Below, in pieces: positions 3,181 through 53,868 of a stretch of DNA of 64,000 nucleotides (the stretch's first letter is position 1; the number at the start of each line of letters is the position of its first letter). The position numbers were made by a program, and so were the translations under genes. The DNA comes from Clostridiales bacterium (GTDB lineage: Bacteria > Bacillota > Clostridia > DUPQ01). Location: the NCBI GenBank assembly GCA_023145435.1, contig JAGLDS010000006.1, forward strand, positions 19,355 to 83,354. The letters run 5' to 3'. The notes under the pieces were generated by a model. It was not told the DNA's origin. It ran no database searches and saw only the letters and a program-made list of their open reading frames with translations.

Positions 3181-3181
3181 G

Positions 3182-3441: not shown

Positions 3442-3475
3442 AACAAATGTTCACCCCAAATAATATTAGTTTTTA

Positions 3476-3504
3476 TGAAACCTTTTGGGCCTTTTTTTCG
3501 TCTA
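3476..3504 (+). promoter_or_regulatory. Candidate ECF sigma-factor promoter
   Basis: TGAAAC-N17-CGTCTA resembles SigM/SigW/SigV-type consensus (TGAAAC...CGT); upstream of the S-layer gene. Confidence 0.5.
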
Positions 3505-3617
3505 ATATTTATGACGGCTTTTATTAGTTGTTATTAATTGTATTTCACTTTTTCAAGTGATATACTATTAATGAAATTTTTACTAAAGAAAAAACATTAT
3601 AAAGGAGGAAATAAATA

Positions 3618-6578
3618 ATGAAATCAGTAAAAAGAATTCTTTCGTCAATTCTGGTTATTACCATGCTATTAGTCATGGTTTCTTTACCAGTTAGTGCGGC
3701 TATTTCATCTCAAGCAGACACTGTTAGAATATTAGGTGTTCTAAAGGGTGATAGCGCAGCAGGTGTAACGGAAGAATATTTGGCAAAAAATACAAATAGA
3801 TCTCAGGGTGCTAGAATATTACTAAGACTTATGGGATTAGAAACAGAAGCAGATGCATTTACAGGTAGCGCTACATTTAGCGACGCATCTAATGCATCAA
3901 GTTATTGGCAACACATGTTAGCTTATTTAAAAGCAAATCCAGAAGTTGGTTTCCAAGGATATCCAGATGGAACTTTTAAACCTCTTAAAGTTATGACAGC
4001 TCAAGAAATATATAAAGTGTTGTTAACTTCTTTAGGATACGTACAAGACGTAGACTATACATGGGATGAAGTTTTTACATTCGCTGCTGAAAAAGGATTA
4101 ACTGCATTATATGGTACAGAAGAAATAACAAATGATGATTTAGCAACCGCATTAGTTGAAGCATTAAATGCAACTAAAAAAGACGGTATGAGATTAATCA
4201 ACTTCTTAGTACAAGAAGGTGTTGTTACTTCTACCAAAGCCGCTGAAGCTGGCTTCTTAACCATTACAGAACTTGTTTATGAAGAAACTTACCTATGTAT
4301 CTATAATGGAACACCTGATTGGCCTAGTACATTAGAAGCAACTTTTGCTGATGAAACAACAGGTTCAGTTAACGTTGTTTGGTCTTCAATTGATTCAAGT
4401 GTAGTTGGTTTCCATGGTGCTACTGGTACTGTTGAAGGATATGGAACGATTTCAGTAATCGTTGAAGTATTCCCTGAAACATTAACAGTAATGGATGCTT
4501 TCCCATCAGATGCTGATGAAATTACTGTATTAGTAAATCAACCAGTACCTATTGGAACTACTATTACTCTTAAAAGAGGATTAGTTGGTTTAGGAACTAC
4601 TGTTACTTATTCAGAAAACAGAAAATCATTTACTTTTACTCAAACATGGAATTTCACACCTGGTGAATATACTGTAAATGTTGGAGGAAGTGAAAAAACA
4701 TTTACTATTGAAGCAGAGAGAGCTGAAGGATTATACATCGATGCAGATTATATCTATCCATTAGCTAATCAAGATTTACAAATTCATTTAGTTAACCAAT
4801 ATGGAATGGCTATGAATTTAACAAATGTACAAATTACTATTTCAAATATTACTAAAGGAATTCAAGTTCCATACACAATTACTGGTGAAACAGCAATTGC
4901 TAATGGTTCTGATCCCTCAAAAGTAGAAGCCGGAGATCAATTAATGATTTTTGTACTTCATAATACTAGTATGTTGACAGCAACAAAACAGGTAGTCGTA
5001 TATGACGAACCAAGCATTCAAGCTTTACAGTTTGGAACATTAGAAATTGCTGATAACAAATCAACAATCGTAGAATACACAACAGGACATAAAATTGAAG
5101 TATATGCAATTGATCAATATGGTAATCCATTAATGTTAACCAACGCTGACATTCAGCCTGGTGGACTAATTCAAGTTTACAGTACTTCAGAAACTATTAT
5201 TAACCCAGCAAGCATTATTATAAACGGCGAAGGCGACTTAGTCTTTAATGCAGAAGCACCAGGAATTGTTACATTGCACTTAATTGTTCCAACAAAAGGA
5301 ATTATTGCGCAACAGACATTAACTGTTTATGCTTCATCAGCTATTGACAATTTTATTATTGCCGGTGCAACTGGAAGAGTTACAGCTGGAACAACTGCTG
5401 ACTTAATTTCTCAAGCATATGACCAATATGGTACACCTCTTTCATTACTTGGTAACTTTGAAGTAAGCAAATTAGTTGTTTCATCATCTAATCCAAGTGT
5501 AGTACCAAACAATGGTATTATCTATGATGCAGGAACTGGTACATTACAAGTTATGGCAGGAATTGCAGGAACTGCACAAGTTTTCTACAGTTATGATGGT
5601 TCAACTACACAGTCATTCTCAGTTACTGTAGATGAAGCTCCAAGACCAGTTACTCTTGTGTCATCTAACATACCTTCATACTTCCAAGTAGGAGCAATCT
5701 ATGCTGCCACTGATGCTAATTTAGTTATAAAAGACCAGTATGGTGAGGCTATTGATTTAGAGGGAACAGGATATACTGTATCTATAGAATTTGTAAACGG
5801 AACAGGTACTTATATGTCTTCATCTCCAGCAAGTTTTGATGGAACAAATACTGTAACATTTACAGCATCAAGTACTGCAGGAACAGCTAATGTTCAATTA
5901 TCACTACTTAATTCATCAATGACATCTGTTAGTGTTATTCAACCAAATGTATATGTTCTTAATGCTAGTGAAATTACTAACTACACCTTAAGTGATGCAC
6001 CAATCTTATATGGTGCCCCAGGAACAGCTGGAACTGACTATGAAGTAACATTAGAGATTCAAGGAAAAACAAGCACAGGTCAAACTGTTATATTAGAAGG
6101 CTCAGGTGCAGTTCCATCAGGAATTATTATGGTAACAAATTCTAACAGCGCTGACTTTACATTGAATAATACTACATTAGAATTGTCCGCACAGGCAGCT
6201 GGAACAACGACTATTAAGATCTTCTCAGTATATGGTGAAGAAGATGCTATCACTGTAACAGCAGTAAGCGATTTACCAGAAGTCACTATATTCGCTTGGA
6301 ATGCAAGTGAAGACTTTGAAATTAATGAAGGTCAAACAGCAGTTGCTTTATTAGAAGGTGACGTTGTTGTTAAAGATCAGTATGGTGTTGTGATTGATTT
6401 AACATCAGGTTCTTGGTATACATCAATTCCTGCAGCAATTAGTATTGCTACACAATCAACTAATAAGTCACCAACTGTTACTATTGGTACTGTTACCACA
6501 GACACAGCAGTATCTATTTCATACATTACAACAGATGGTAAAGTATTAACACATACCTTCACAGTTGTAGATGACTAA
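3618..6578 (+). CDS. S-layer / surface protein with SLH-like N-terminus and Ig-like repeats
   Basis: Signal peptide (VSA-A), SLH-like GFQGYPDGTFKP, repeated (D/N)QYG motifs, T/S/V-rich beta composition, strong AAGGAGG RBS. Confidence 0.8.
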   Translation: MKSVKRILSSILVITMLLVMVSLPVSAAISSQADTVRILGVLKGDSAAGVTEEYLAKNTNRSQGARILLRLMGLETEADAFTGSATFSDASNASSYWQHMLAYLKANPEVGFQGYPDGTFKPLKVMTAQEIYKVLLTSLGYVQDVDYTWDEVFTFAAEKGLTALYGTEEITNDDLATALVEALNATKKDGMRLINFLVQEGVVTSTKAAEAGFLTITELVYEETYLCIYNGTPDWPSTLEATFADETTGSVNVVWSSIDSSVVGFHGATGTVEGYGTISVIVEVFPETLTVMDAFPSDADEITVLVNQPVPIGTTITLKRGLVGLGTTVTYSENRKSFTFTQTWNFTPGEYTVNVGGSEKTFTIEAERAEGLYIDADYIYPLANQDLQIHLVNQYGMAMNLTNVQITISNITKGIQVPYTITGETAIANGSDPSKVEAGDQLMIFVLHNTSMLTATKQVVVYDEPSIQALQFGTLEIADNKSTIVEYTTGHKIEVYAIDQYGNPLMLTNADIQPGGLIQVYSTSETIINPASIIINGEGDLVFNAEAPGIVTLHLIVPTKGIIAQQTLTVYASSAIDNFIIAGATGRVTAGTTADLISQAYDQYGTPLSLLGNFEVSKLVVSSSNPSVVPNNGIIYDAGTGTLQVMAGIAGTAQVFYSYDGSTTQSFSVTVDEAPRPVTLVSSNIPSYFQVGAIYAATDANLVIKDQYGEAIDLEGTGYTVSIEFVNGTGTYMSSSPASFDGTNTVTFTASSTAGTANVQLSLLNSSMTSVSVIQPNVYVLNASEITNYTLSDAPILYGAPGTAGTDYEVTLEIQGKTSTGQTVILEGSGAVPSGIIMVTNSNSADFTLNNTTLELSAQAAGTTTIKIFSVYGEEDAITVTAVSDLPEVTIFAWNASEDFEINEGQTAVALLEGDVVVKDQYGVVIDLTSGSWYTSIPAAISIATQSTNKSPTVTIGTVTTDTAVSISYITTDGKVLTHTFTVVDD

Positions 6579-6599
6579 ATAGTTTTAAACAAATTTATT

Positions 6600-6630
6600 G
6601 AAAGAGTACTTAATTGTACTCTTTCTTTTT
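6600..6630 (+). terminator. Intrinsic terminator
   Basis: GAAAGAGTAC-ttaatt-GTACTCTTTC followed by a T tract. Confidence 0.85.
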
Positions 6631-6716
6631 GTGAATTTTTTGTAAACGATTATGTATTTTACTTATGAGGTCTTTTATTTATGATATAATTTGTATAGTA
6701 AAAAAAGGGGGCCATT

Positions 6717-7820
6717 TTGTTAAAGAAAATTACCAGTATAGTTTTAATATTTTTACTAATAAGCTTACCATTAATGGCAAAAGCTTCATCCTTTAATGAA
6801 TTACAAGTTGAGTACCTATCTAATAGTGAGCAATTACAATCACTTAAAGAACAATTAAATGATCAAATTGATAATTATGTAGATGATTATTATAGGTATG
6901 TTAAGATGAGTAGTAGAAGTAATCTTTCATATAATCTTGCATATTTAATGATTAATAAAATTACAGGTAAATTAAATGTTGATTGGAATATAGAAAGAAC
7001 TAAAGAACAATTATTAACGACTACTAGTTCCCTTGAAATAACATTTAGAAATTTATATTTTTCTCTATACTCGTTTCATAAAAATGTAAACAGCATGCAA
7101 GATAAGTATGATAAACAAGTAGTTGCTTATGCTAATTCACAATTGTTGTTTTCACAAGGTTATATTAATCAATCTTCTCTTAGAGTAGCAAGATACACCT
7201 TAGAAACCGCAAAAGTATCTTTAAATAGTAGTAAGCGAAATTATGAGAATGCTCTATTTTCTTTTAATATAGCAATGAAACAATCAATTAACTTTTCTGA
7301 TTATTCTTGGGATATAGAAGAAACTCTTTTACCCGTTTTAAAGCTTAGTGAGTATCTTGATAGTTTTATTACGTATTCAAAAGTTATCATTGAATATGAT
7401 AGACAACTTTATAAAGATGAAATTAAGGTTGATTATCTTGATGGATATAATGTTAATGTAACAACAAATAGTGGTTCAATAGATTATAAGCAAACGATGA
7501 TTACAATGGAGCTAAATCAATTATATAAAGAAACATTCATAACCTCACAATCTAAGGAGATAAGACAATTGTTTTTCAATTTATCTCAAGAACATGACAC
7601 AATTAATAATTACAAAACAAAAATTAATATTTATTATCAAGAAATGCTAGATAATAAAGCATTTGCTGAAAAAGGATATATTGACCAAGAAGAATATCAA
7701 GAATATGTAGAATGTTATGAAGCATCTCTTGTTACCTATATAGAAAAGATGTACACATACAATACACATGTATTGCAACTTGAAAATATTGCTTGCACTT
7801 ATATGAAGGAGACTTTTTAA
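6717..7820 (+). CDS. Secreted helical protein, TolC/OEP-like
   Basis: Signal peptide (AKA-S); long amphipathic helices with two 'GYI' turns (FSQGYINQ, EKGYIDQ) like OEP repeats. Confidence 0.55.
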   Translation: MLKKITSIVLIFLLISLPLMAKASSFNELQVEYLSNSEQLQSLKEQLNDQIDNYVDDYYRYVKMSSRSNLSYNLAYLMINKITGKLNVDWNIERTKEQLLTTTSSLEITFRNLYFSLYSFHKNVNSMQDKYDKQVVAYANSQLLFSQGYINQSSLRVARYTLETAKVSLNSSKRNYENALFSFNIAMKQSINFSDYSWDIEETLLPVLKLSEYLDSFITYSKVIIEYDRQLYKDEIKVDYLDGYNVNVTTNSGSIDYKQTMITMELNQLYKETFITSQSKEIRQLFFNLSQEHDTINNYKTKINIYYQEMLDNKAFAEKGYIDQEEYQEYVECYEASLVTYIEKMYTYNTHVLQLENIACTYMKETF

Positions 7821-7822
7821 TC

Positions 7823-8875
7823 ATGAAGAAAAAAATTATTTTATTAGTGATCATAGCGCTGTTAATCAGCGGAGGTGTTTTAGGAGTTGAAGTAATAAAA
7901 ATTTCAATTGAACAAGCTAATACTTTAGCTATTACAAATAATCCATATGTAGCAATTGACGAATTACGATATGATGCTGCTGTTATTTCATATGACGAGG
8001 CAAATAGAATAGCTTCAATCACAGAAAAGACAACCTACAAAGGACAAATTAAAGGGGTTTATACACCATTTAATGAAGAGACTACTTTAACTTTAATAGT
8101 AATGAATAATAATAAGAATATTAAAAATATTGAAAAAGACATTCTAAATGTGAGTTATGATTATTATCTTTTTGAAAGTAGTTTATATTTAGCTAATGAG
8201 ACTTTTTTAAAGGCTAAAAGTGATTATTTGGAAATATTAGCAACATCAGATAGTATAGAACTTGAAAAAATGAATGGAGAATATTTAGTAGAGTCTTCAA
8301 GAATTGCCTTAGAAAATGCTGAGAATGAGTTTGCAGCAATTGGCAAGCGATTAAAAAGTATGTTACCAGACAATAAAATTATTGATATTAATTTAATTGA
8401 TATAATAAACCCTTATGACCTTACCTATGAAGAAGTATATGAAAGTGCAATGACAAATCATATTACGTTATATTCGTCTTCGCGTAATATGGAATCAAAA
8501 GAAATATATTTTAATATTATTAGTCAATTTTATGGAGAAACTACAGAAAAACATATTACTGCAAAGGCTAATTATGAACAAGCGTTATTAGATTATAATA
8601 AACAATTACTTTCAGTTGAAGTTTCAATTTTACGTGATATAAATAATTTAAAAACAAAATATGACTATTTACAATTAGAAAAATTGAATCAACAAATTAA
8701 ATTAGAAGACTATGAGATAGCTTTGACACAATATGAACAAGGATTTATCTCTCTTAATATTCTACAGGGAAAAGAGAAAACCTATAAGGTGGTAGTTTCT
8801 TTAGTTTCACAAAAGGAGAAAACCTATATATTAGCATTAAAAGATTTAGAAATCAGTACAGGATATATTCGTTAA
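7823..8875 (+). CDS. Secreted helical protein, TolC/OEP-like
   Basis: Start ATG 7823 after AAGGAG; signal peptide; ISIEQANTLAITNN N-terminus and YEQGFISL motif typical of OEP-family proteins. Confidence 0.6.
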   Translation: MKKKIILLVIIALLISGGVLGVEVIKISIEQANTLAITNNPYVAIDELRYDAAVISYDEANRIASITEKTTYKGQIKGVYTPFNEETTLTLIVMNNNKNIKNIEKDILNVSYDYYLFESSLYLANETFLKAKSDYLEILATSDSIELEKMNGEYLVESSRIALENAENEFAAIGKRLKSMLPDNKIIDINLIDIINPYDLTYEEVYESAMTNHITLYSSSRNMESKEIYFNIISQFYGETTEKHITAKANYEQALLDYNKQLLSVEVSILRDINNLKTKYDYLQLEKLNQQIKLEDYEIALTQYEQGFISLNILQGKEKTYKVVVSLVSQKEKTYILALKDLEISTGYIR

Positions 8876-9643: not shown

Positions 9644-11431
9644 GTGTTTAAAAAGCGATTACAATGGAAATTAGTTATATTTATCTGCTTGATTGCAGTT
9701 TGCTTAGTTATACCAATTGGTATATTTTTGAATATTAGCATAGAAAATTTTCATTATAATCAATTTATTGAAAATATAGAAAAAGGCTTTGATATTTATG
9801 AAATTCAAGAAGGTTCACTAAATATTTCTAATGTATATCAAGATATGAGAGATATATATGCTCCTTCATTTGGGATTTATGGAAATAATAAAAGCTATAC
9901 AATCATAAATCGTAAAAACAATGAAATTTTTTCATCTGACTCATCCTTTTTGAGTAAAGATGAACAAGTTTTTCTCACAGAACTATATAGTTCGATTAAT
10001 TTTATTACTGCTGTGTCAGGAGAACATATTAATCATAAGGAATTAATAACAATTAATAACAGAGCTTTTTATGATTATGCAGTTGTTAAAGAAAATTTAG
10101 TCTTTTATTTCAGGTATTACAAAGAAGATTGGCAGTTAATGGTTTCTGAATTTAATAATTCAATTATGACAAGCTTATTAATCTCTTTGGTATTTGCCTT
10201 TATCATAGGATATTTATTATCAAAATCTATAACTAAACCTATTAATGATATTATTGAGAAAACACAAGACATTGCTGAAGGAGAATTTGGTCAACTGCTA
10301 GAAAAAGCAGGAAATGATGAAATTGGCCAATTAACTATGTCTATTAATGAGATGTCATTAAATCTTAAAAATATGTTAGAGGATATTTTTAATGAAAAAA
10401 ACAAGATTGATGCTATTTTAACTAATATGACAGACGGAATAATTGCTTTTGATGTAAATGGAGTTATTACTCATGTTAATCCTGTTTCGCTAAAGCTACT
10501 TCATCGTAGGAAAATAAATGAGACAATACAACAGATAATAAAAGAATATAAAATTAATATTACATTTGATGAGATTATCAAAAAAACAGATAAAGTAAAT
10601 AACAGTAATCTAATCATCAACATACACGACACAATATTACATGTAGCATTTGGAATATTACGAGATAAAAATCATCATCCAGAAGGGATTATAATGATTT
10701 TAAGGGATATAACTAAGCAACAAAAACTAGATGAAATGCGAAAAGAGTTTGTTGCTAATGTGTCACATGAATTAAAAACACCATTGACCTCTATTAAAAG
10801 TTATACAGAAACCTTGCTAAATGGTATGGTTGATGATCAAGAAACTAGAGAGCAATTTTTACAAGTTATTAATAGCGAAACTGATAGAATGTATCGAATT
10901 GTAAGAGATCTTCTTCAGCTTTCTGCCATGGATTTAAATCAACTATACTTAAATAGACATTTACATAGTATAAATGAACTAATTATAAAAACCATTGAAA
11001 AAGTAGAAGTTGAGGCTAAAGCTAAAAATCACATGATATATACTGAAATTGAATATGAAGGAAATGCATTTTTTGATTATGATAAAATACAGCAAGTACT
11101 AATAAATGTTTTAACAAATGCAATTAAATATTCTGATGAATTTGGGAAAATTACAGTTAAATCTATTAGAAATAAAGAATATGCTTACATTAGTGTAAAA
11201 GACACAGGAATCGGTATTCCAGAAAAGGATTTACCTAGAATATTTGAGAGATTTTATACAGTTGATAAAGCTCGTTCTAGAAAAATGGGAGGAACTGGAT
11301 TAGGATTAGCTATTGCCAAAGAAATAATGATTGCTCATAATGGGAATATTATTCTTGATAGTAAAAAGAAAAAGGGGACTACTGTTACAATTATAATACC
11401 TATAGAAAGGGAGAAAATAAGTGAAGAATAA
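9644..11431 (+). CDS. walK: Sensor histidine kinase WalK/YycG
   Basis: Two TM segments, HAMP, PAS, FVANVSHELKTP H-box, DKARSRKMGGTGLGL. Confidence 0.85.
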   Translation: MFKKRLQWKLVIFICLIAVCLVIPIGIFLNISIENFHYNQFIENIEKGFDIYEIQEGSLNISNVYQDMRDIYAPSFGIYGNNKSYTIINRKNNEIFSSDSSFLSKDEQVFLTELYSSINFITAVSGEHINHKELITINNRAFYDYAVVKENLVFYFRYYKEDWQLMVSEFNNSIMTSLLISLVFAFIIGYLLSKSITKPINDIIEKTQDIAEGEFGQLLEKAGNDEIGQLTMSINEMSLNLKNMLEDIFNEKNKIDAILTNMTDGIIAFDVNGVITHVNPVSLKLLHRRKINETIQQIIKEYKINITFDEIIKKTDKVNNSNLIINIHDTILHVAFGILRDKNHHPEGIIMILRDITKQQKLDEMRKEFVANVSHELKTPLTSIKSYTETLLNGMVDDQETREQFLQVINSETDRMYRIVRDLLQLSAMDLNQLYLNRHLHSINELIIKTIEKVEVEAKAKNHMIYTEIEYEGNAFFDYDKIQQVLINVLTNAIKYSDEFGKITVKSIRNKEYAYISVKDTGIGIPEKDLPRIFERFYTVDKARSRKMGGTGLGLAIAKEIMIAHNGNIILDSKKKKGTTVTIIIPIEREKISEE

Positions 11432-12866
11432 AACAACTCAAATTGTTATAATGATTATTTTATTACTAGCTGTCATAGTGCAGGCTATTATTATTCTTGA
11501 CTATTATCTAGATACTTATTCTTTAGGTATCTTTGACAAGGAAAATAACATTGAAAGTTATTATCATTCCTTTGAAGAAGAAATTTACACATCATATTTA
11601 CAACCATATCGGATGATTGTTAAAAGTGGAGTAAATGATTCTTGGATTATTAAAAGAGAAGATAGTACTTTATATGAACCTATGTGGGCAGCTTACCAAG
11701 AAGTGTTAAGAAATATTTTACAAACTAACGCTTCTTATAAAACAGAAAGTAACAGTGATTGGGATAATATTTATAAAAGCGAAGGTGTTACATTAGATTT
11801 TATGCAACCAAATCCAGTTGAATTTGTAGCACTTATGGTACAAGCAAAAACCTATCAACCAATTGATGCAGAAATTGAAAAGATTCACATTAAGCCTGAA
11901 AATGATAATTTAACAACCATTTATATAAAAACCACAGATTATGTTTTGATTTACAGTAACGTGGAAGCTTTTGAGTATTTTACTAGAGAAAATTATAGTA
12001 AGTTATATAATTTATTAGAGAATACAGAACGTTATGACAGCTCAAGGTATTTTTACTATAGCCGAATTATTTCCAATAGTAAAATTGCTGACTTAAAAAA
12101 TAATTTAGATATTCCTGTAAAGATTGACAATGAATATGCTAGAACATATCAATATGTTACCGTTAATCCATTTGTGTTAATTAAAGGATATAATGAAACA
12201 AGCAATATAAAAGAGAAAAATCAAATGGTTGAAAATATAAAACGATTATTACTAGGAGTTACTCACGATCAGCACAAAACTACTATTAATGCAGATAATG
12301 ATATTTTCTTTTCAAATGAGTATAACTTATTTTCCATTGAAGATAATAGTCGTTTTACTTACAAATTTATAGCCACTTCCGCCGAAACTACAGGAGATGT
12401 GAAAAGTGCTTTTTATAATGCCATAGAATTATTAACAGATTTCTTTTACATAAATGGTTCAGGACAACCTAAGCTGATTGTTAGAAATGTAACAAAAGAA
12501 GAGGATGGTTACTTATTTGAATTTAGTTATATATATCATGATTTAATTATTCTATTTGAAGATGAAAATAATATGATTAAAGTTAAAGCAAATAAAACTA
12601 GGGTTTTAGAAGCTAGTGGGAAATTATTAACGATTTCACCACTGTTATTAAGTAATACCACAACAATAGTAGAAGAAGATTATTATGCTAACTTTATAAA
12701 AGTAATAGAACAATATCAAATTAATTTATTACAACTCAGTGCAAAAAATATTTATGTTGGGTATGTAATTGGTGAAGAAGATGAAGCGTTTTTGATTCCT
12801 AAAATGATTGTTGAAGAATATTCAGGTGATAAACAAGTATATGATATTGAACAGGCGGAAGAATAA
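11421..12866 (+). CDS. yycH: YycH-like membrane-anchored regulator
   Basis: Single N-terminal TM, about 480 aa extracellular part, directly after walK; positional assignment. Confidence 0.55.
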   Translation: MKNKTTQIVIMIILLLAVIVQAIIILDYYLDTYSLGIFDKENNIESYYHSFEEEIYTSYLQPYRMIVKSGVNDSWIIKREDSTLYEPMWAAYQEVLRNILQTNASYKTESNSDWDNIYKSEGVTLDFMQPNPVEFVALMVQAKTYQPIDAEIEKIHIKPENDNLTTIYIKTTDYVLIYSNVEAFEYFTRENYSKLYNLLENTERYDSSRYFYYSRIISNSKIADLKNNLDIPVKIDNEYARTYQYVTVNPFVLIKGYNETSNIKEKNQMVENIKRLLLGVTHDQHKTTINADNDIFFSNEYNLFSIEDNSRFTYKFIATSAETTGDVKSAFYNAIELLTDFFYINGSGQPKLIVRNVTKEEDGYLFEFSYIYHDLIILFEDENNMIKVKANKTRVLEASGKLLTISPLLLSNTTTIVEEDYYANFIKVIEQYQINLLQLSAKNIYVGYVIGEEDEAFLIPKMIVEEYSGDKQVYDIEQAEE

Positions 12867-13649
12867 ATGAACACAAAAAAAGCTCTTAATTTAATAATCG
12901 TATTATTATTAGTAATTAATATCTTTTTACTTGTATTTATTATTAATTTTGATGAAGGAAGCAAAGAGTATGAAAATGAAATTACCTATGTACGTGATAT
13001 CATGGCTTATCGAGGCGTAAGTATTAACGCTTCTTTTAATAACGAACCTAGTATAGCTATTGGAATGGAATATAACGATGGAATTTTTACAAAAGATTAC
13101 ATTAATCAAATTAGTGAATTAATTACTGGTAATATACAAAGTAGTGAAGATGAAACTACAATATCCATCACTTTAACAGAGCGTCTAAAGATACCTAAAG
13201 AAATAAACGATAGATATGACGCAGATAGAAGAATTAGAGATTTTTTAGATAGTATTAGTTTTAATCATATTAATTATTTAGTAGATACTGTTGTTATGTC
13301 AGGTACAAGCACATATAATGTTGATTATATTTATATTGGTAATAATAAGGTACTATATGACTTATATATATCAGCGACAATTGATGAATACGGTATGAAA
13401 AGTATAGCAATTAAATACGTTGATAATCAATTAATAGAAGGAGAAAAATCATCAATTTTACCCGTAACAACAATTTTAATGAGCCAGATAGTTTATAAAG
13501 AAAACACATATGGTAAAAATACAATTAGTCGTATTGATGAAGGATATAAACAAGATGCCAAAGGAAAAGTATATTATTGTTATAGGTTAACAGATGGGAA
13601 TCAGCAAGTTAAATATTATAATGGCGTGGATGGAAAAGAAATAAAATGA
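12867..13649 (+). CDS. yycI: YycI-like membrane-anchored regulator
   Basis: N-terminus MNTKKALNLIIVLLLVINIFL and C-terminal YYNGVDG match the YycI pattern; operon position. Confidence 0.65.
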   Translation: MNTKKALNLIIVLLLVINIFLLVFIINFDEGSKEYENEITYVRDIMAYRGVSINASFNNEPSIAIGMEYNDGIFTKDYINQISELITGNIQSSEDETTISITLTERLKIPKEINDRYDADRRIRDFLDSISFNHINYLVDTVVMSGTSTYNVDYIYIGNNKVLYDLYISATIDEYGMKSIAIKYVDNQLIEGEKSSILPVTTILMSQIVYKENTYGKNTISRIDEGYKQDAKGKVYYCYRLTDGNQQVKYYNGVDGKEIK

Positions 13650-16650: not shown

Positions 16651-17958
16651 ATGGCAAGATATATACCTAATACTAATGAGCAACAAGTTGAAATGCTGCA
16701 TGCTATTGGTGTAAAAAATATAGAGCAGTTATTTGATATAATTCCAAAAGCAGTTAAATTTAATGGACTACTTAATATTCCTGGTGGGTTAACTGAAATG
16801 GAAATTATAAAATATTTTTCCTCTTTAGCTAATTTAAATAAAACCACAGATGACTATATATGTTTTTTAGGGGCAGGTGCTTATGATCACTATGTACCAT
16901 CAGTAATAGACCATATGTTGAGCCGACAAGAGTTTTATACCTCATATACGCCATATCAACCAGAGATTTCACAAGGAATGTTACAAGCTATTTTTGAATA
17001 TCAGACAATGATATGTCAATTAACGAGTATGGATGCTTGTAATGCTTCAATGTACGATGGACCAACAGCTTTAGCTGAAGCGTGCGTTATGGCCTATTCA
17101 ACACAAAAAAGAAAAAACAAGATTCTATTATTAGATAGTATTCATCCAGAAGCTAAACAAGTAGTGTCTACATATTTGCAGTATAGAGATGTAGATATTG
17201 TACAAACTACTTTAGAAACACTTGTTGATGATATAGATGAAAACACTGCATGTCTTTGTGTACAAACACCAAACTATTATGGACAAGTTGAAAAGTTAAA
17301 AGAATTAGGTGAAGCTATTCATAAAGTAAAAGGATTATTAGTTGTATATACAGATCCAATATCTTTAGGGATTTTACAACCTCCTGGAGATTTTGGGGCA
17401 GATATTGTTGTAGGCGAAGGACAAGTTTTAGGAAATCCTTTAGCCTATGGAGGTCCTTATCTTGGCTTTTTTGCAGTAACTGGAAAATTAGTTAGAAAAA
17501 TGCCAGGACGGATTGTTGGGCAAACAGTTGACACAGAGGGAAAGAGAGCATTTGTTTTAACGTTACAGGCGAGAGAACAACATATTAGGCGAGAAAAAGC
17601 TACATCAAATATTTGCTCAAATCAATCACTAAATGCATTGGCTGCAACAATCTATTTATCAGTAATAGGGAAAAAAGGGATAAAAGACATTGCTAAACGT
17701 TGTCTTGTTAATGCCCATTATACTTATGAGCAATTAATTGATACAGGTTTATTTGAAAAAGTATCAGATAAACCGTTTTTTAAAGAATTTGTTGTTAAAT
17801 GTAAAGCTAATGTAAGTAAGATTAATGACCACTTAATAGAGAATGGATTTTTAGGAGGTTATGATTTAGGAGACGGATTGTGGCTAGTGGCAGTTACGGA
17901 GAAGAGGACAAAAGAAGAAATTGATTTATTTGTGAAAGTGGCAGGTGAAGTAGTATGA
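16651..17958 (+). CDS. gcvPA: Glycine dehydrogenase subunit 1
   Basis: [35 protein letters not shown]. Confidence 0.97.
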
Positions 17959-19400
17959 AAAAATTGATTTTTGAAATATCACAACCAGGACGAAGTGCTT
18001 TTTCTTTACCACCAACTTTAATAAAAGAACAACCACTAGAAAATTATTTACCAAAAGAATTAATTAGAAAAGAAAGTGCACCTCTTCCAGAAGTAAGCGA
18101 AGTAGATGTAATTAGACATTTTACACATCTAAGTCAGCGAAATTTTGGAGTAGATCAAGGGTTTTATCCATTAGGATCTTGTACAATGAAATATAACCCT
18201 AAAATAAATGAAGATATTGCCAGATTAAATGGGTTTGTAAATGTGCATCCTTATCAACCTTATAACACAACACAAGGCGCTTTAAAAGCCTTGTATCATC
18301 TTGAATTGTTGTTGTGTGAAATTACAGGCATGGATCAAATGACTTTACAGCCAGCAGCAGGAGCTCATGGAGAAATGGCTGGATTAATGATGATAAAAGC
18401 TTATCATGAAGCAAAAAGCGATCATAAACGTACTAAAATAATATGTCCAGACTCTGCTCATGGAACAAATCCTGCATCAGCTGCCATATCAGGATTTGAT
18501 GTTGTAACTGTTCATTCCAATGACAAAGGACTAGTAGATATTAATGATTTAAAAGAATTAATGGATGATCAAGTTGCTGGATTAATGTTAACTAACCCAA
18601 ATACTTTAGGCCTTTTTGAAGAAGAAATTATGGAAATAGCAACTATTGTTCATGAAAAAGGTGGCCTTCTATATTATGATGGAGCTAATGCAAATGCAAT
18701 TTTAGGAAAAGTTAGACCAGGTGACATGGGCTTTGATGTTGTTCACTTAAATTTACATAAAACATTTTCCACACCACATGGTGGTGGTGGACCAGGTTCA
18801 GGACCAGTTGGAGTAAAAAAAGAGTTAATTCCCTATCTTCCCATACCAATAGTGAAAGAAAATAATAATGAGTTTTATCTTTCATATAACCATCCTTTAA
18901 CAATAGGAAAAATCAGATCTTTTTATGGTAATTTTTCTGTGTTAATTAAAGCTTATGCATATATTTTAACTATGGGCAATAAAGGATTAAAAGAAGTTTC
19001 AGAAAATGCAGTGTTAAATGCTAATTATGTTATGTCACAAATTAAAGATGATTTCATAGTTCCTTTTGGTACATCGTGTATGCATGAGTTTGTATTATCA
19101 GGACAATTACAAAAAGAAAAGGGTGCTTCTACGTTAGATATGGCTAAACGATTACTTGATTATGGTTATCATCCGCCAACTATCTATTTCCCTTTAATCG
19201 TCAAAGAGGCTATGATGATTGAACCTACAGAAACAGAAGGTAAAGAAACATTAGATGAGTTTATAAAAGTTATGAAAGATATTGTGGCTGAAGTTGATAA
19301 AAATCAAAGTTTAGTTCATAATGCGCCACATACCACAGTGGTTAAACGTCTAGATGAAGTTATGGCTGCTAGAAAACCAATTGTAAAGTACACACCTTAA
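17955..19400 (+). CDS. gcvPB: Glycine dehydrogenase subunit 2
   Basis: [30 protein letters not shown]. Confidence 0.97.
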
Positions 19401-20494
19401 TTGTGTTTACCTAAAATGTGTTTTCTAAAAAATGCTTTCCATAAAGAACAATAAGAGTCATAGGGAGAATTCATTAGAACATCTTTTGGAAACCCTATGA
19501 TTTTTTTGTACAATGATAAATCATTATTTGTCATTGTATAACCATGCCATCCTAGTTTTCCAAAAACAGTTTTTGGTGGAGTTAAGTTCTTTTTAGAACA
19601 AACCATGTTTTTTTTATTATTCCCATACTTTTTACAATCTAATAAAACCCATTCATCAATTTTAATAGAAGAGACTTCATTAAAAAATGAAAGCATAATA
19701 TATATTGTATAAGAATAAGAACTATTCTTTATTATATTAATAATCTCTTTCCAGTTAATAGCATCTTCGTTTTCTAAAATTGTATATAAATCAGTTACCC
19801 ATCTTATAATAAAAACAGGATCCCAAGTAGCCGCATGGAGTAGAGTGTTTATAATTTGATTTTCAGGCGTTAGTACATTTACAGCTACTCCTTTATAATT
19901 AAGTGCAATAGTTTTAGTAAGAGTAATATTTATATTTCTAAGATAATTGCTTTTCCAATGTAAATCGATTTCAAAACCAAGGCTATTAGAAAAAGCGAAG
20001 GAATGCCTAGTATCTATATTAGTAGCAACATCATATGAAAATTGTGGTGAAAAGCCATGTGATTGTAAAACAGAAATAGTATCAGGGATTTGTTTTTTTG
20101 TAACAAGTAAATCTATATCATTCATATGCCTTAACCCTTTATCTTGGTCATAGGTTAATATAATTGCTAATCCTTTTATTACTGTGAATGGAATATGATT
20201 TTTATTTAATTCTCTTCCAACTGATAATAAGTTATTAAAATGAATACTATTTTTGAATAGAGTTTTCTTATAAACACCTTTATATCTATTGATGTTTTCA
20301 TCAACTATGTTGCCTTTTACTAGTCGTTTATATAGTAAAGGAAGAAGACGATAGCTTTCTCCATCAATATAATCAACAATATTAACTTGGTTTATCCAAG
20401 CATCATAATAGATAGGTAAATCAAAAACATTACCAACAATAGCTTGTAATAAATATTTTTGAGAAGAAGTAATTGAAAGCTTAAGATGTTTCAT
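19397..20494 (-). CDS. Nucleotidyltransferase (NTP_transf_5-like)
   Basis: IKGLAI...[12 protein letters not shown] and EIDLHW motifs. Confidence 0.8.
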
Positions 20495-22881
20495 TTTCTT
20501 TTTTCCTTAATTCGTTTAGCAAATACTTTAGCAAAATCTTGACGGTTTTGCTTATTAATAATACCAAAATTATTATAGTGCATTCTACGATACATAAGAA
20601 CTTTTGGGATAATAGCAGAGCGTAATTGACTATCATCTAAACGTCCAATCCAATCAATAGATTCTCCAACTCTTAGCTGTTCATCAAAAAAACCAACAGT
20701 TAGAAAATCTTCTTTTTTTATAAGCATAGTTCCTGCATGACGTCCCTTTGAAGGGTTGGTGGGACATATGTACTTTGACTTATATGCTTGATTAACTTCG
20801 CTAGAATAAAATTGACTTATGTGTCCAAAGACCACATCAGTAGTAACGTCAAAAAGAAGTCTCTCAAGTTGAATTTGTAATTTGTAAGGAACCCACACAT
20901 CATCATGATCTATAAAAGCCAAGTAATTTCCCCTAGCTTTTCTAACACCTGTATTTCTAGCACCACCTATTCCTTTGTTCTCTTGATAACAGTAAATAAT
21001 TCTATCATCTTTATAACTGTCAACTAATTGTTTAGTGTTATTAGTTGAACCATCATCTACTATAATAATTTCAAAAACAGAATGTGTTTGAGCAACAACT
21101 GAATCAAGGCATGTAAGCAAATGAGTAGTTGAATTATATGCTGGAATAATTAAACTAATTAATACATCTTCTTTTCTTTTTTTTCGCTTAATGGAAGTTG
21201 ATAAAATCTTAAATATAAATTGTCTATTTTTTTGAATATCACTTGAAATGTTATTATCGTGAATTAATTTATCATATAATATTTCATCTAGAGTATGAAT
21301 TTGTAACGATGATTCAATTATCCTATTTAAAAAATCAAAGTCTTCACCTAATTTTAGAGATTCATTGAAAAGACCAAGTTGATTTAAAACTGATTTCTCT
21401 AGAAGTTGACTACTTGGAACTCTAGTTGAATATCTCTTTTGGTGTTCAATTGTTTGAACCCAACTATAATCTTTAGTTGGATCTTCAAAAACTAAATTAT
21501 GTTTAGTAAAAAGAACAGATACATCTGGATGATATCTATGATAAGTAATTTGTTTGAAAAGCTTATCTTTATACCATACATCATCGTGATCAATAAAAGC
21601 GATTAATGACCCTTTTGCATAATTTATACCTAAATTTCTAGCAGCACCAGGTCCGCTATTTTCTTGGTAGTAGTAAGAAATATTTTCACTTTTATATGAT
21701 TTAATAAGAGTAGCAGTATTATCAGTTGAACCATCATCAACTATTATTAATTCTACTTGTTTATGAGATTGGTTTAACACACTATCTATTGCTTTTTTTA
21801 TGTACTTTTGTCCGTTATATACTGCCATTATGACTGATACCAGTGGGTGGTGGGTAATAAAGGTCTGTAAACCTAATATATTTTTTTCAATTTGATTACT
21901 TAATGTATATTCATATACTGGAAAACTTTTTACTAGTTTTGAGATATGCTTAATAAATGAATGATTTGCTCCTGGTAATTGAAACATAGTACTAGCACCA
22001 ATTGTGGCTAAGGCTCTTGTTTTTGGTATTTTTTCTATGTGAACTTGTTTTAAATCTTGTCTATTAATAAAGATAATTCCTTCTAACTTGAATCGCTTAC
22101 CAATGGTTTTATGAGGAATATCTGTTATAAATAAATAACCCTTTTCTTCATTGGTAGGTTTATTTACTAAGAAATTATTTACTATTGGGAAAAGTTTAAT
22201 CATATCGTTATTAATTTTAATAGTATTATAAATAGAGGTGACATAAGGGTGATCATTATTTTCAATTATGACATAATCATCACCTAATAAGGTACTACCT
22301 TCAAATAAACTTAACATGGATAAAGTGGATTTTCCAACACCACCTCGCCCTGCAAGAAGATAACCACTATCACTATTTGAAATAGCCGCTGAATGAATAA
22401 GTGTCATATTGTTTTTAACGCAAAACCAATGAAGTAACATTCTCATTGGGCAAGCTTTTTCATAATAAGGCATGGTTTCTAATGAATTAACAACATAATA
22501 AGCATTTTGATTTGGAAAATCAATAAATGTCATCATTGATGTTAAAATATTATAGAGTAAATGAGTATCTTCATGATTAAAAAAGTAAGTGGCGTTTACA
22601 ACATTATTTGCATTTTCTCCTGTAATTATATCATAGGGCATTTTAATTGATGTAGATAATTCATCAAAAATATGAACAGTTAATACATAATTGTCACATG
22701 GTTTCACAAGAAGATGTTCAAAAGGTTTACAGAGTACATTAACCAATGTATCGTTGGCAAATAAAAAGCGAATAGGGATATTGTTTATTATTAAGTACTT
22801 TTCAACTGGTTCGAAAGAACAAGCTTCATTCCAATATTGTTTAATAATGTTTTTAATTGCGCTATATCGTTTTTCACTCAT
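20491..22881 (-). CDS. Fusion of an HPr-kinase-related kinase with two GT2 glycosyltransferase domains
   Basis: IHSAAI..LLAGRGGVGKST..LGDDY kinase motifs, then VSVIMAVYN..DDGSTD..FIDHDD and ISLIIPAYN..DDGST..FIDHDD. Confidence 0.85.
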   Translation of the reverse strand: MSEKRYSAIKNIIKQYWNEACSFEPVEKYLIINNIPIRFLFANDTLVNVLCKPFEHLLVKPCDNYVLTVHIFDELSTSIKMPYDIITGENANNVVNATYFFNHEDTHLLYNILTSMMTFIDFPNQNAYYVVNSLETMPYYEKACPMRMLLHWFCVKNNMTLIHSAAISNSDSGYLLAGRGGVGKSTLSMLSLFEGSTLLGDDYVIIENNDHPYVTSIYNTIKINNDMIKLFPIVNNFLVNKPTNEEKGYLFITDIPHKTIGKRFKLEGIIFINRQDLKQVHIEKIPKTRALATIGASTMFQLPGANHSFIKHISKLVKSFPVYEYTLSNQIEKNILGLQTFITHHPLVSVIMAVYNGQKYIKKAIDSVLNQSHKQVELIIVDDGSTDNTATLIKSYKSENISYYYQENSGPGAARNLGINYAKGSLIAFIDHDDVWYKDKLFKQITYHRYHPDVSVLFTKHNLVFEDPTKDYSWVQTIEHQKRYSTRVPSSQLLEKSVLNQLGLFNESLKLGEDFDFLNRIIESSLQIHTLDEILYDKLIHDNNISSDIQKNRQFIFKILSTSIKRKKRKEDVLISLIIPAYNSTTHLLTCLDSVVAQTHSVFEIIIVDDGSTNNTKQLVDSYKDDRIIYCYQENKGIGGARNTGVRKARGNYLAFIDHDDVWVPYKLQIQLERLLFDVTTDVVFGHISQFYSSEVNQAYKSKYICPTNPSKGRHAGTMLIKKEDFLTVGFFDEQLRVGESIDWIGRLDDSQLRSAIIPKVLMYRRMHYNNFGIINKQNRQDFAKVFAKRIKEKRK

Positions 22882-23290
22882 CTTTTTTATGAGGCCATCC
22901 TTCTTCTTTTACTTCATGAATTGGATCTAGTAATAACATTTCACGCATATCATCAAATTCTTCAATAAGAGGAGCTATATATGGTTGAGGTATATGATTT
23001 GTATCTGATGTTTGAGAAGAGATACCTTCTGTTAGTAATTGCTTATCTAATAAGTATGAAAGTATTTTAGTAATATCACTAGTAGCAGTATTTTTATCAA
23101 CTGAAAATACTAATTGATATCCTTTTATAACTTGCTCTTGGATATCTCCATTATTAAAGGTAAAAAAGATATATGAGGCTGTTTCATTAAAGCTATAATA
23201 GCAACCTGTTTCAAGATTGATAACAACAGTATCTTTGTCAATTTCTTCACTGATAATGCGTTCATCATCAATAAAATATTGTTTATTCAT
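22874..23290 (-). CDS. PqqD/RRE-family protein with C-terminal peptide extension
   Basis: EEIDKDTVVINLETGCYYSFNETASYIF...DITKILSYLLDKQLL fits the PqqD fold pattern; AGGAGG RBS; extra tail YIAPLIEEF...LLLDPIHEVKEEGWP. Confidence 0.8.
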   Translation of the reverse strand: MNKQYFIDDERIISEEIDKDTVVINLETGCYYSFNETASYIFFTFNNGDIQEQVIKGYQLVFSVDKNTATSDITKILSYLLDKQLLTEGISSQTSDTNHIPQPYIAPLIEEFDDMREMLLLDPIHEVKEEGWPHKKDE

Positions 23291-23321
23291 AACCCCTCCT
23301 TGTCCTAACTAATCACACAAA

Positions 23322-23343
23322 ATTATATCATTTATGATATAAT
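23322..23343. promoter_or_regulatory. Palindromic back-to-back extended -10 elements
   Basis: ATTATATCAT-TT-ATGATATAAT gives TGATATAAT on each strand between divergent genes. Confidence 0.6.
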
Positions 23344-23369
23344 AAAACAAATTATAGGAGGCTATTAAC

Positions 23370-24485
23370 ATGGGATTAAAGAAGATAAAAGATGTTTTAA
23401 TTTATAAAGATGCAAGATATTATTCAACGTTTCCAAACATTATAAAATTAAAAGATGACACTTTATTGGTGTCATTTAGACAAGCTCCTAATCGTTTAGA
23501 AACCTATGGGGATATTACACATGGTGATCCTGCTTCAAAAGGAGTTTTTATTACTTCAAAAGATAATGGGAAAACATGGGATAGTGATGTGTCTATAATT
23601 CATGATCACTTTTTTTATGGAGTACAAGACCCATGTGTTAACTATCTAGAGGATGGAACGATTCTCTCAACTTTTTTCATGTGGAAATTTGGTGAAGCAA
23701 AAGATTATCCTAATGCAACTAGAAAAATGCATGCAGGCTACAGTGAGCATGTAATGTTTTTAAAAGATGCCTATACTACTCGCTCTCATGATGAGGGAAA
23801 AACCTTTGAAAAACCATTAAAAATTGACTTTTATGGAAAAGAAAAGACTAATACTGTTAGGGGAAATGTGGCTAAACTACCTGATGGAAGTATTGTTTTA
23901 GCAGTTGCAGGTTATCATGATGTTATGAATTTAAGAAAAATAAGCATAATACAAAGTTACGATCAAGGGAAAACTTGGAAACGATTAAACACTATTCCAG
24001 TGGTACCTAATGCATTTATGGGAGAACCAAATCTGTTTTTAACAAAAGGCGAAAAACTTGTATGTATGTTGCGAACACATAAAGAAGATGGAGACAAAAG
24101 TGTATATGATGATGGTAATAATGATATGGCATATATGCATTATTCAGTTTCTCTAGATTTTGGTAAAACCTGGTCACAACCTAAAAAAACACCATACACA
24201 TCACCATCACCTTTTGAAGCCATACAATTAAAAAGTGGAAATGTGCTAATGACTTATGGAAACAGATATAAACCATATGGAATTAAAGCAATTTTATTAG
24301 ATGGTGAAATGAATAATATTGAAAGTGCAAGCGAAATGCAAATAAGAGACTGCGGTATAAATCATGACTTAGGATATACACGTTCTGTTCAATTACCAAA
24401 TGATGATATTTTAGTAGTTTATTACATGTATGATGAAAAAGATAAAATAAGACATATTGAAGGGACAATACTAAGAGAAATATAA
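23370..24485 (+). CDS. BNR/Asp-box (sialidase-like) beta-propeller protein
   Basis: Asp boxes SKDNGKTW, SHDEGKTF, SYDQGKTW, SLDFGKTW; DLGY near the C-terminus; no signal peptide. Confidence 0.8.
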   Translation: MGLKKIKDVLIYKDARYYSTFPNIIKLKDDTLLVSFRQAPNRLETYGDITHGDPASKGVFITSKDNGKTWDSDVSIIHDHFFYGVQDPCVNYLEDGTILSTFFMWKFGEAKDYPNATRKMHAGYSEHVMFLKDAYTTRSHDEGKTFEKPLKIDFYGKEKTNTVRGNVAKLPDGSIVLAVAGYHDVMNLRKISIIQSYDQGKTWKRLNTIPVVPNAFMGEPNLFLTKGEKLVCMLRTHKEDGDKSVYDDGNNDMAYMHYSVSLDFGKTWSQPKKTPYTSPSPFEAIQLKSGNVLMTYGNRYKPYGIKAILLDGEMNNIESASEMQIRDCGINHDLGYTRSVQLPNDDILVVYYMYDEKDKIRHIEGTILREI

Positions 24486-24494
24486 GAGGTAAAA

Positions 24495-25610
24495 ATGCTA
24501 TTAAAAAAAATCAAAGATATACTTATCTACAAAGATAAAAGATTTTACTCCACATTTCCAAATGTAATTAAACTAAAAGACAATACCTTAATGGTTTCTT
24601 TTAGACAAGCTCCTAATCGTTTAGAAACACATGGTGACTTTACACATAATGACCCTGCCTCAAAAGCTGTATATGTAACATCAAAGGACAACGGAAAAAC
24701 ATGGGATAAAAATGTTAGTGTAATATATGATCACTTTTTTCATGGAGTACAAGATCCTTCAATGAACTATTTAGAAGATGGAACAATTCTTTCCATGTTT
24801 TTTACATGGAAGTATGGAGAAAAAAATGATTTTCCAAATGAGACTAGAATAATGCATGCAGGATATTCTGATCATGTAGCAATGATGGTAGATACATTTT
24901 CGACACGTTCATATGATAATGGGAAAACTTGGGAAAAACCAATACTTGTTGATTATTACAAGAAAGAGTCAAAAGTTGCAGTAAGGGGAAATTGTGTCGT
25001 ACTTGATGATGGAAGTCTTGTTTTAGCAATCGCTTGGTATAACAATGATTTTACTAAAAGACTAAATGATATTATTAAAAGTAAAGATAAAGGGAAAACT
25101 TGGGAGAAATTATATACATTTCGTAAAATAAAAAATTTATTTATGACGGAGCCAAATCTTTTTAGGACCAAAAGCGGTAAATTAGTATGTATGATGAGAA
25201 CACATAAAGAAGATGAAAGTAAAAACATATATGATGATGGAAACAACGATATGGCATATATGTATTACTCAGAATCATTAGATGAAGGTAAAACATGGAA
25301 AGATCCTAAAAAAACACCGTATACTTCACCATCACCCTTTGAAGCTATTCAATTGAAAAGTGGAAATGTTTTAATGACTTATGGAAATAGATATAAACCA
25401 TATGGAATTAAAGCAGTACTTTTAGATGGTGAAATGAATAACATTGAAAGTGCTAATGAATTACAAATAAGAAATTGTTGCACTAATCATGACTTAGGAT
25501 ATACACGTTCTGTTCAATTACCAAATGATGATATTTTAGTGACTTATTATATGTATGATGAAATTGATAATATAAGACATATAGAAGGAACTATTTTAAG
25601 AGAAGTATGA
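24495..25610 (+). CDS. BNR/Asp-box (sialidase-like) protein, tandem paralogue
   Basis: Same length (371 aa) and colinear with the upstream gene; Asp boxes SKDNGKTW, SYDNGKTW, SKDKGKTW, SLDEGKTW. Confidence 0.8.
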   Translation: MLLKKIKDILIYKDKRFYSTFPNVIKLKDNTLMVSFRQAPNRLETHGDFTHNDPASKAVYVTSKDNGKTWDKNVSVIYDHFFHGVQDPSMNYLEDGTILSMFFTWKYGEKNDFPNETRIMHAGYSDHVAMMVDTFSTRSYDNGKTWEKPILVDYYKKESKVAVRGNCVVLDDGSLVLAIAWYNNDFTKRLNDIIKSKDKGKTWEKLYTFRKIKNLFMTEPNLFRTKSGKLVCMMRTHKEDESKNIYDDGNNDMAYMYYSESLDEGKTWKDPKKTPYTSPSPFEAIQLKSGNVLMTYGNRYKPYGIKAVLLDGEMNNIESANELQIRNCCTNHDLGYTRSVQLPNDDILVTYYMYDEIDNIRHIEGTILREV

Positions 25611-53865: not shown

Positions 53866-53868
53866 TAA

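Follow-up and report, generated by a model that had tools for sequence, protein, structure and literature searches.

RiPP recognition elements (RREs; RiPP, ribosomally synthesized peptide with post-translational modifications) are generally seen as adaptors for leaders that reside on a separate peptide. A three-gene cassette in a 64,000-nt stretch of DNA from a Clostridiales bacterium (contig JAGLDS010000006.1 of assembly GCA_023145435.1, positions 19,355 to 83,354; hereafter the window) raises the question of what such an element does where no separate peptide is found. The cassette, entirely on the minus strand, encodes a lasso-B1-like RRE protein (window positions 22874-23290, 138 amino acids, aa), an HprK-like kinase fused to two family 2 glycosyltransferase (GT2) domains (20491-22881, 796 aa) and an enzyme of the NTP_transf_5 nucleotidyltransferase (NTase) fold (19397-20494, 365 aa). 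The three open reading frames (ORFs) overlap successively by 8 and 4 bases; an earlier note, made from the sequence of the window, had described them over exactly this span, 19397-23290, and Pfam agrees with its domain calls, the kinase scoring below the cut-offs. We report that the cassette is a single instance of an RRE-kinase-GT2-GT2-NTase module, widespread and self-contained, and that what is new in it is the C-terminal tail of the RRE protein, with a leader-type motif and a near-invariant LLLDPIHEV…GWP segment.

The RRE protein and its conserved C-terminal tail

Residues 1-89 of the RRE protein (23024-23290) form a PqqD-fold domain, as indicated by Pfam (PqqD, residues 21-86, 33.7 bits against a cut-off of 23.4), by an AlphaFold2 model built on a 119-row alignment (mean predicted local distance difference test score, pLDDT, of 83.6), by Foldseek and by a profile search of the PDB. 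In fold and in sequence, TbiB1 is its nearest match. Foldseek matched the domain to TbiB1 in a structure in which this protein is in complex with a leader (5v1v, E 4.5e-6, target template modelling score, TM, of 0.88), and the PDB profile search recovered TbiB1 at 1.7e-15 over query positions 9-88 only. The lasso PqqD models of NCBIfam gave 36 bits, below their cut-off of 70.

The most conserved part of the aligned RREs is not the PqqD domain but a C-terminal extension of ca. 50 residues. Among 185 unique tails, this extension consists, in order, of a variable linker rich in Pro, Ala, Ser and Thr; the motif Y/F-x-x-P-x-[L/F/I], with Y or F in 170 and P in 178 of the tails; an acidic helix with a fixed Asp and a fixed Met; the segment LLLDPIHEV, in which DPIHE is essentially fixed; and GWP, found in 172-173 of them. 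In the window's protein, the linker (residues 90-103, 22982-23023) is rich in Ser, Thr and Pro and shows no column conservation and a block pLDDT of 66. It leads to the leader-type motif Y104-x-x-P107-x-I109, fused to the RRE (22964-22981) and recognised from the tail alignment, from pLDDT and from covariation with D72. The near-invariant tail follows (residues 110-133, 22892-22963), where a helix with D114 and M115 precedes LLLDPIHEV and GWP.

A profile search identified 1445 tailed proteins of about 130-160 aa, and the 44-residue tail, used as the sole query, identified 1160 representatives at 50% clustering. Matches in the protein atlas were to 'hypothetical protein / PqqD' clusters only, and the tail had no counterpart in the PDB profile search, every match ending at about residue 88. 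One metagenomic protein, P0257 (284 aa), contains a tandem duplication of the whole tailed RRE, with a degenerate tail in copy 1 and an intact one in copy 2. Two positions alternate between Ser/Thr and Asp/Glu among the 185 tails. Their reading as phosphosites was downgraded: 32 of the tails have Ser/Thr at neither position, yet the kinase is kept, and the residue spectra fit helix caps.

The leader-type motif and the pocket of its own RRE

The Y/F-x-x-P-x-hydrophobic motif is that by which the leaders of lasso peptides and of linear polyphosphorylated peptides (LPP) bind their RREs (PMC13381572). In the AlphaFold2 model of the RRE protein alone, residues 101-110 reach a pLDDT of 95, with a strand at 109-112, and the last 18 residues (121-138) have a pLDDT of about 54. 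When the 137 positions of 303 tailed RREs were compared, the best predictor of Tyr versus Phe at position 104 was residue 72 of the RRE. Asp occupies position 72 in 97 of 152 sequences with Tyr104 and in 4 of 134 with Phe104, and, after thinning to 40% identity, in 19 of 33 and 0 of 35, respectively; these sequences are related, so that counts and p-values overstate the significance.

In TbiB1 the residue aligned with D72 is an Asp of helix 3; in PbaB1, a binder of Trp-containing leaders, it is a Gln. In LppB, D70 is reported to hydrogen-bond the leader Tyr, a bond that paeninodin-type RREs lack according to the same study (PMC13381572). The top-ranked covarying position is the same one singled out by crystal structures. 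Together, covariation and modelling suggest that the leader-type motif most likely sits in the RRE pocket of its own protein.

The kinase-GT2-GT2 fusion and its predicted complex with the RRE protein

The first 340 residues of the 796-aa fusion (21862-22881) are assigned to an HprK-like P-loop kinase. This is the weakest of our domain calls, recognisable from its sequence at the superfamily level only: Pfam Hpr_kinase_C gave 21-23 bits, below its cut-off of 33.3; NCBIfam HprK_rel_B and HprK_rel_A gave 39 bits (4.1e-10) and 37 bits (2e-9), both far below the cut-off of 200; and a PDB sequence search matched HprK/P at E about 1e-6 over ca. 50 residues around the P-loop only. Residues H163, G181, G183, K184, D201, D202 and Y203 are invariant in 25 kinase homologues, with the P-loop GxGKS at 181-185.

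The first GT2 domain spans residues ca. 345-540 (21262-21849) and is matched by Pfam Glycos_transf_2, Glyco_tranf_2_2 and Glyco_tranf_2_3, and the second spans residues ca. 574-780 (20542-21162), with its best Glycos_transf_2 stretch at 576-703. Over the whole fusion, Glycos_transf_2 matches in two stretches (233 bits, E 1.8e-69), and DDGS and DHDD are readable in both GT2 translations. Fusion of kinase and GT2 is rare, the kinase part being matched by only four proteins of 437-1393 aa and the two functions sharing one frame in 2 of 51 loci. By these sequence comparisons, the kinase-GT2-GT2 protein is a lineage-specific fusion of genes that adjoin in a module of many phyla.

We then modelled the kinase domain (25-row alignment) together with the RRE protein (119-row alignment). 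The predicted complex reached an ipSAE interface score of 0.62, against 0.04 for the best of three controls; the ipSAE mark is reached by 58 of 80 solved complexes and by 2 of 110 mismatched pairs, counts that are only a rough guide here because our own alignments were used. The runs shared at least 53% of the contacts, with partner pLDDT values of at least 77, and no solved RRE-HprK-like complex from which the predictor could have learned the pairing is known to us. The predicted interface joins residues 9-33 and tail residues 112, 114-115 and 118-119 of the RRE protein to residues 286-318 and 179-181 of the kinase, the latter adjoining the P-loop. By this prediction, the sheet of the RRE and the helix that follows the motif dock beside the P-loop of the HprK-like kinase.

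The NTP_transf_5 enzyme and the chemistry of its relatives

The third enzyme is matched by Pfam NTP_transf_5 (PF14907) with 101.7 bits, where 31.2 is the cut-off. All of 24 homologues keep D126 and D128, and its AlphaFold2 model (pLDDT 91.1) is matched by Foldseek to the nucleotidyltransferases MenT1, LnuA and ANT(2''), in agreement with the modelling reported for PsmN, the enzyme of this type in pseudomycoidin biosynthesis (PMC6993621). PsmN is required for one or two additions of +162 Da on phosphorylated pseudomycoidin, and its DxD double mutant is inactive (PMC6993621). By analogy of motifs, this essential DxD may correspond to D126/D128 of the module. In the LPP system, up to four phosphates are put on one Ser by LppK (PMC13381572).

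Recurrence of the module in relatives and across phyla

We searched 41 related genomes, including the window's own, with the 796-aa fusion. It was found full-length in genomes G002 (82% identity) and G013 (44%), cut by contig ends in G015 and G017, and as separate kinase and GT2-GT2 genes in G009; in each of these five genomes it is preceded by an RRE of 129-151 aa, with an NTP_transf_5 gene either after it or in divergent orientation. The flanks are BNR genes in G002, genes for a dihydrofolate reductase-like protein and a pseudouridine synthase in G013, and CHAD and DUF454 genes in G015. Since the flanks differ between relatives, the cassette genes are taken to move as a unit. The split module of G009 (locus L014, contig C227, 8050-13181) has an additional family 8 glycosyltransferase gene between RRE and kinase and a divergent NTase gene; its tail lacks the Pro of the leader-type motif and keeps DPIHEV and GWP.

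A census of contigs from one genome per species found a tailed RRE in 337 of 374 candidate stretches, corresponding to 337 species, from which the best 80 loci were kept. The module occurs across more than 12 phyla: these loci include Clostridia, Smithella and other Syntrophia, Desulfocapsa, Cloacimonadota, Binatia, Chloroflexota, Verrucomicrobiota, Acidobacteriota, Planctomycetota, Chlamydiota, Cyanobacteria, Actinomycetota and one metagenome-assembled genome (MAG) of Bathyarchaeia, and the carriers are almost all uncultured MAGs. Module genes were counted with profiles built from the loci and run on six-frame translations; 17 loci were left out as too short, and the counts refer to the 63 that have 4 kb or more of sequence downstream of their RRE. 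Within 6 kb, the kinase was present in 55 of the 63; kinase, two or more GT2 and NTP_transf_5 occurred together in 37; and four had none of the three. The commonest order, RRE-kinase-GT2-GT2-NTase (14 loci), is that of the window, followed by the same order with three GT2 domains (6 loci) and by RRE-GT2-GT2-kinase-NTase (5 loci). In five of five tested genomes whose RRE lacks an adjacent kinase, a strong kinase homologue was present on another contig (E 1e-78 to 1e-85). The window has the most compact form of the module, in three genes.

Recurrent neighbours among the 80 loci were ATP-binding cassette (ABC) ATPases (21 loci), sulfotransferases (14) and family 4 glycosyltransferases (GT4, 12). 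Full ABC exporters, with ABC_membrane and ABC_tran in one gene, were found in about 10 of the 80, and a Polysacc_synt_3 flippase or a Bac_transf gene in single loci. Two loci of Chloroflexota (L058, 8902-14108, and L066, 8776-16518) have a tailed RRE followed by ABC transporter genes and a fused AMP-binding/PP-binding/lipid-A-type acyltransferase, L066 also containing sulfotransferases; neither has a local kinase-GT2-NTase set, and the kinase lies elsewhere in the genome.

Searches for lasso machinery and for a separate precursor

The earlier note had described the cassette as standing alone, without a lasso cyclase, and this holds beyond the window: no cyclase or B2 protease was found in the window scans or at the loci of the related genomes. 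B2 (PF13471, Transglut_core3) had no match in the window's assembly, which is 69% complete. It was present in 17 of 50 module-bearing genomes and never at the locus of the tailed RRE, from which the nearest B2 on the same contig is separated by 58 kb; in the places where it was seen, it adjoins a separate, tail-less RRE. The 80 loci contain 103 ORFs of 480-760 aa, none of which matched Asn_synthase at E 1e-12, a threshold that weaker matches would escape. The gene set thus recurs without cyclase or B2, complete in the 37 of 63 loci given above, and neither outcome that the earlier note took to speak against it, lasso genes and a precursor regularly beside homologous cassettes or lack of co-occurrence of the three genes, was observed.

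No signal-peptidase family was present among the scanned ORFs of the window or the recurrent neighbours of the 80 loci. Clustering of 6505 small ORFs from these loci found none common to several phyla on the strand of the module. The largest clusters, from 8, 7 and 4 loci, were rejected as candidates; they are reverse-strand, low-complexity translations, which we read as antisense frames. Only one tail-bearing protein of 30-74 aa was found among 5.8 billion proteins.

The relatives contain other loci with related families. A second cyclase-less type (L019, contig C91 of G019, 1212-7365; L020, contig C57 of G009) encodes, in order, a 323-aa protein of unknown family, a 92-aa tail-less PqqD protein, a 142-aa Transglut_core3 protein, a 325-aa HprK-like protein, NTP_transf_5, DUF362 and a B12-binding radical S-adenosylmethionine (SAM) protein. 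In L021 (contig C34 of G013, 2-5998), a 104-aa PqqD protein and an HprK-like kinase come after a protein of more than 1500 aa similar to glycoside hydrolase family 94 glucan phosphorylases/synthases.

Comparison with known systems

The closest published relative of the module is the LPP family (Popov et al. 2026, PMC13381572). Module and family alike combine, with no cyclase, a lasso-like RRE of the discrete kind with an HprK-like kinase and an NTP transferase that is uncharacterised, both use a YxxP motif with the RRE, the Tyr-Asp hydrogen bond being that of LPP, and both are often near glycan genes (PMC13381572). The separate precursor, the SpI-type leader peptidase and the MsbA-like exporter belong to LPP only, which is described there as restricted to Bacillota (PMC13381572), whereas the module has its motif in the RRE chain itself and counts two GT2 domains among its core components, peptidase and precursor are lacking, and the distribution exceeds 12 phyla. 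Of the long LPP leader consensus, the module has only the Y-x-x-P-x-hydrophobic part; LppB (9x8z_B) was recovered at only 2.2e-5 in the PDB profile search, versus 1.7e-15 for TbiB1; and no MsbA-like exporter lies in or beside the window's cassette. The cassette therefore fails as a member of LPP, having the RRE-kinase-NTase set with no SpI peptidase, exporter or separate precursor.

The tailoring set of the paeninodin and pseudomycoidin lasso clusters (PsmK, PsmN) comprises the same three protein families, its kinase phosphorylating a Ser (Zyubko et al. 2019, PMC6993621). Unlike those clusters, the module has no macrolactam synthetase, B2, separate precursor or exporter, and its kinase is fused to GT2. 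The lasso B1 proteins TbiB1 and TfuB1 (PDB 5v1v, 5v1u, 6jx3) have the same fold (28-30% identity, target TM 0.83-0.88) and keep the pocket Asp; they are of ca. 85-90 aa and their leader is on a separate peptide, in contrast with the 50-aa motif-bearing tail in the same chain of the module's RRE. Membership in the lasso clusters fails as well: the discrete RRE is present, and cyclase, B2 and separate precursor were not found.

The HPr-rel-A system of NCBIfam (HprK-related kinase A, TIGR04352; PqqD family chaperone, TIGR04353) likewise pairs kinase and chaperone without a cyclase. TIGR04352 scored 37 bits here and 18-46 bits in other phyla (cut-off 200), and TIGR04353 did not match the window's RRE and scored 23-24 bits in other phyla (cut-off 35). 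Membership fails on score, and the RRE-kinase-NTase logic is common to lasso, LPP and HPr-rel-A. In mycofactocin, the MftA peptide, which is highly conserved, the RRE MftB and the GT2 enzyme MftF work together. NCBIfam MftF matched the GT2 part with 126 bits, below its cut-off of 280; the module differs from mycofactocin in having no radical SAM enzyme and in the fusion of the peptide to the RRE. A literature search, with subscription journals outside its coverage, retrieved lasso and LPP papers and no description of an RRE with such a tail or of the module.

Genomic context of the cassette

The cassette converges with gcvPB (17955-19400, plus strand), into which the end of the NTase gene reaches by 4 bases, and diverges from a BNR-repeat gene (23370-24485, plus strand) 79 bases upstream. 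Ribosome binding sites can be read from the sequence on both sides of this divergent intergenic region (23291-23369). A promoter and terminator scan gave 36 promoter-like sites, not above the shuffled controls (32.2 ± 5.0). When the window ORFs were scanned against families, no RiPP, peptidase, exporter, cyclase or glycan cluster was found beside the cassette, and the nearest ABC genes lie at 52315-54573. The remainder of the window is of housekeeping character: NAD synthesis, the glycine cleavage operon, glutamate synthase, pyruvate:ferredoxin oxidoreductase and two-component systems.

The region 23370-25610 (plus strand), divergent from the cassette, encodes two tandem paralogous BNR/sialidase-like proteins of 371 aa, which are 90-92% identical to their counterparts beside the cassette of G002 (L012) and absent from the loci of the other relatives. 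Also on the plus strand are a 986-aa protein with a weak PepX_N match only (3618-6578) and four neighbouring ORFs of 260-481 aa, at 6717-8875 and 11421-13649, with no Pfam family at E 1e-6. The source genome is a MAG of 1.44 Mb. Its assembly contains a single NTP_transf_5 gene and one copy each of the RRE, the tail motif and the module-type kinase, with a weak second kinase match (E 2.7e-8) on contig C2. The sequencing runs that contain the stretch are cold-seep and seawater metagenomes.

Interpretation

The interpretation that we favour, tentatively and as slightly short of an even bet, is that the RRE protein unites in one chain the recognition element, the leader and the acceptor of a phosphate-linked glycosylation, bound to itself and docked on the kinase. 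The RRE protein would bind its own leader-type motif and dock on the kinase, leaving the last, nearly invariant part of the tail (LLLDPIHEV…GWP) held out to the enzymes. The kinase may then phosphorylate the tethered tail or the linker, and the NTP_transf_5 enzyme would add a hexose onto that phosphate, by analogy with the requirement for PsmN in pseudomycoidin; the two GT2 domains would extend the sugar afterwards. A separate precursor, a leader peptidase and a cyclase would all be missing because recognition element, leader and acceptor form a single chain. Within this scheme the RRE protein is most likely a built-in scaffold and perhaps the acceptor. The role as scaffold, one of the proposals of the earlier note, is strengthened by the covariation of motif and pocket and by the predicted docking on the kinase; nothing in our results supports its companion idea that the scaffold serves to make an activated donor for surface glycans. 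That the RRE is a self-priming acceptor, in the first RiPP-type pathway without a separate precursor, which would make a protein- or peptide-anchored phosphoglycan in several hundred bacterial species and at least one archaeal MAG, seems to us possible but on the whole doubtful.

Several observations weigh against the single-chain scheme, and its weak point is the acceptor, the aligned tails offering no invariant hydroxyl residue. In the 185 unique tails, the conserved part contains neither an invariant Ser nor an invariant Thr; where Ser/Thr is partly conserved, at two positions, the window's own RRE carries D113 and K128 and so is among the 32 tails without Ser/Thr at either; and the residue spectra at both positions suit helix capping as well as phosphosites. 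A peptide invariant across phyla would be unusual as a RiPP core, and a docking surface for enzymes is an equally good fit to the conservation. The covariation, whose significance is inflated by kinship, cannot separate binding within a chain from binding between copies, and the RRE-kinase complex is a model score and not a measurement. LppN was without activity in a heterologous LPP system (PMC13381572). The top GT2 matches, which all score far short of the cut-off, are TuaG, WcaA, EpsD and PglI, whose pathways make lipid-linked glycans. Finally, 14 of the best 150 tail-only matches are of 39-66 aa, so that rare free-standing tail peptides are possible.

Some of these points would suit the main rival, in which the RRE protein is not a substrate but an adaptor that assembles or switches on the kinase-GT2-NTase complex, the phosphate-linked glycan being built on another acceptor, for instance a wall polymer, a lipid carrier or a protein not linked to the module. 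A tail that is almost wholly invariant is reminiscent of an interface and comes with no invariant hydroxyl residue, the best GT2 matches act on lipid-linked glycans, and ABC ATPases, sulfotransferases and GT4 enzymes recur as neighbours, with a flippase or Bac_transf gene in single loci. We nevertheless consider this rather unlikely: all characterised pairings of an RRE with an HprK-like kinase and an NTP_transf_5-family enzyme act on a peptide, a retained leader-type motif that covaries with the pocket is elaborate for a mere adaptor, and the window's cassette has no adjoining glycan genes.

A quite improbable explanation is that the substrate is a separate precursor encoded elsewhere, the fused motif acting as an autoinhibitory placeholder that the true leader displaces. 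The assembly is incomplete, at the 69% given above, short leader motifs cannot be searched reliably, a longer pattern having given seven chance-level matches in the genome, and public data contain a few tail-only proteins of 39-66 aa; against this, the 80 loci have no conserved small ORF near the module, the contexts of the module are unrelated among relatives, and a single tail-bearing protein of 30-74 aa was found in 5.8 billion. It is hardly credible that the cassette is what decay has left of a lasso or LPP cluster, after loss of the cyclase, the protease, the exporter and the precursor. All three protein families are indeed accessories of paeninodin-type lasso clusters, but the census contradicts decay: the frames are intact, with overlapping stops and starts, gene order is kept across phyla, the catalytic motifs are invariant, B2 was found in 17 of 50 genomes and never at a tailed-RRE locus, and 0 of 103 ORFs matched Asn_synthase at E 1e-12.

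Significance

Uncultured MAGs as carriers may explain why no description of the module was found, and the compact three-gene version is well suited to heterologous expression. If the single-chain scheme is true, this version would be a minimal system for the chemistry of the NTP_transf_5 family, left open in the pseudomycoidin and LPP studies. The rule of the separate leader would likewise be extended by an RRE whose own chain supplies the leader-type motif that it binds, in a module found from Clostridia to Desulfobacterota, Chloroflexota, Chlamydiota and a Bathyarchaeia MAG. The module stands a fair chance of representing a new way of organising a RiPP-type pathway.

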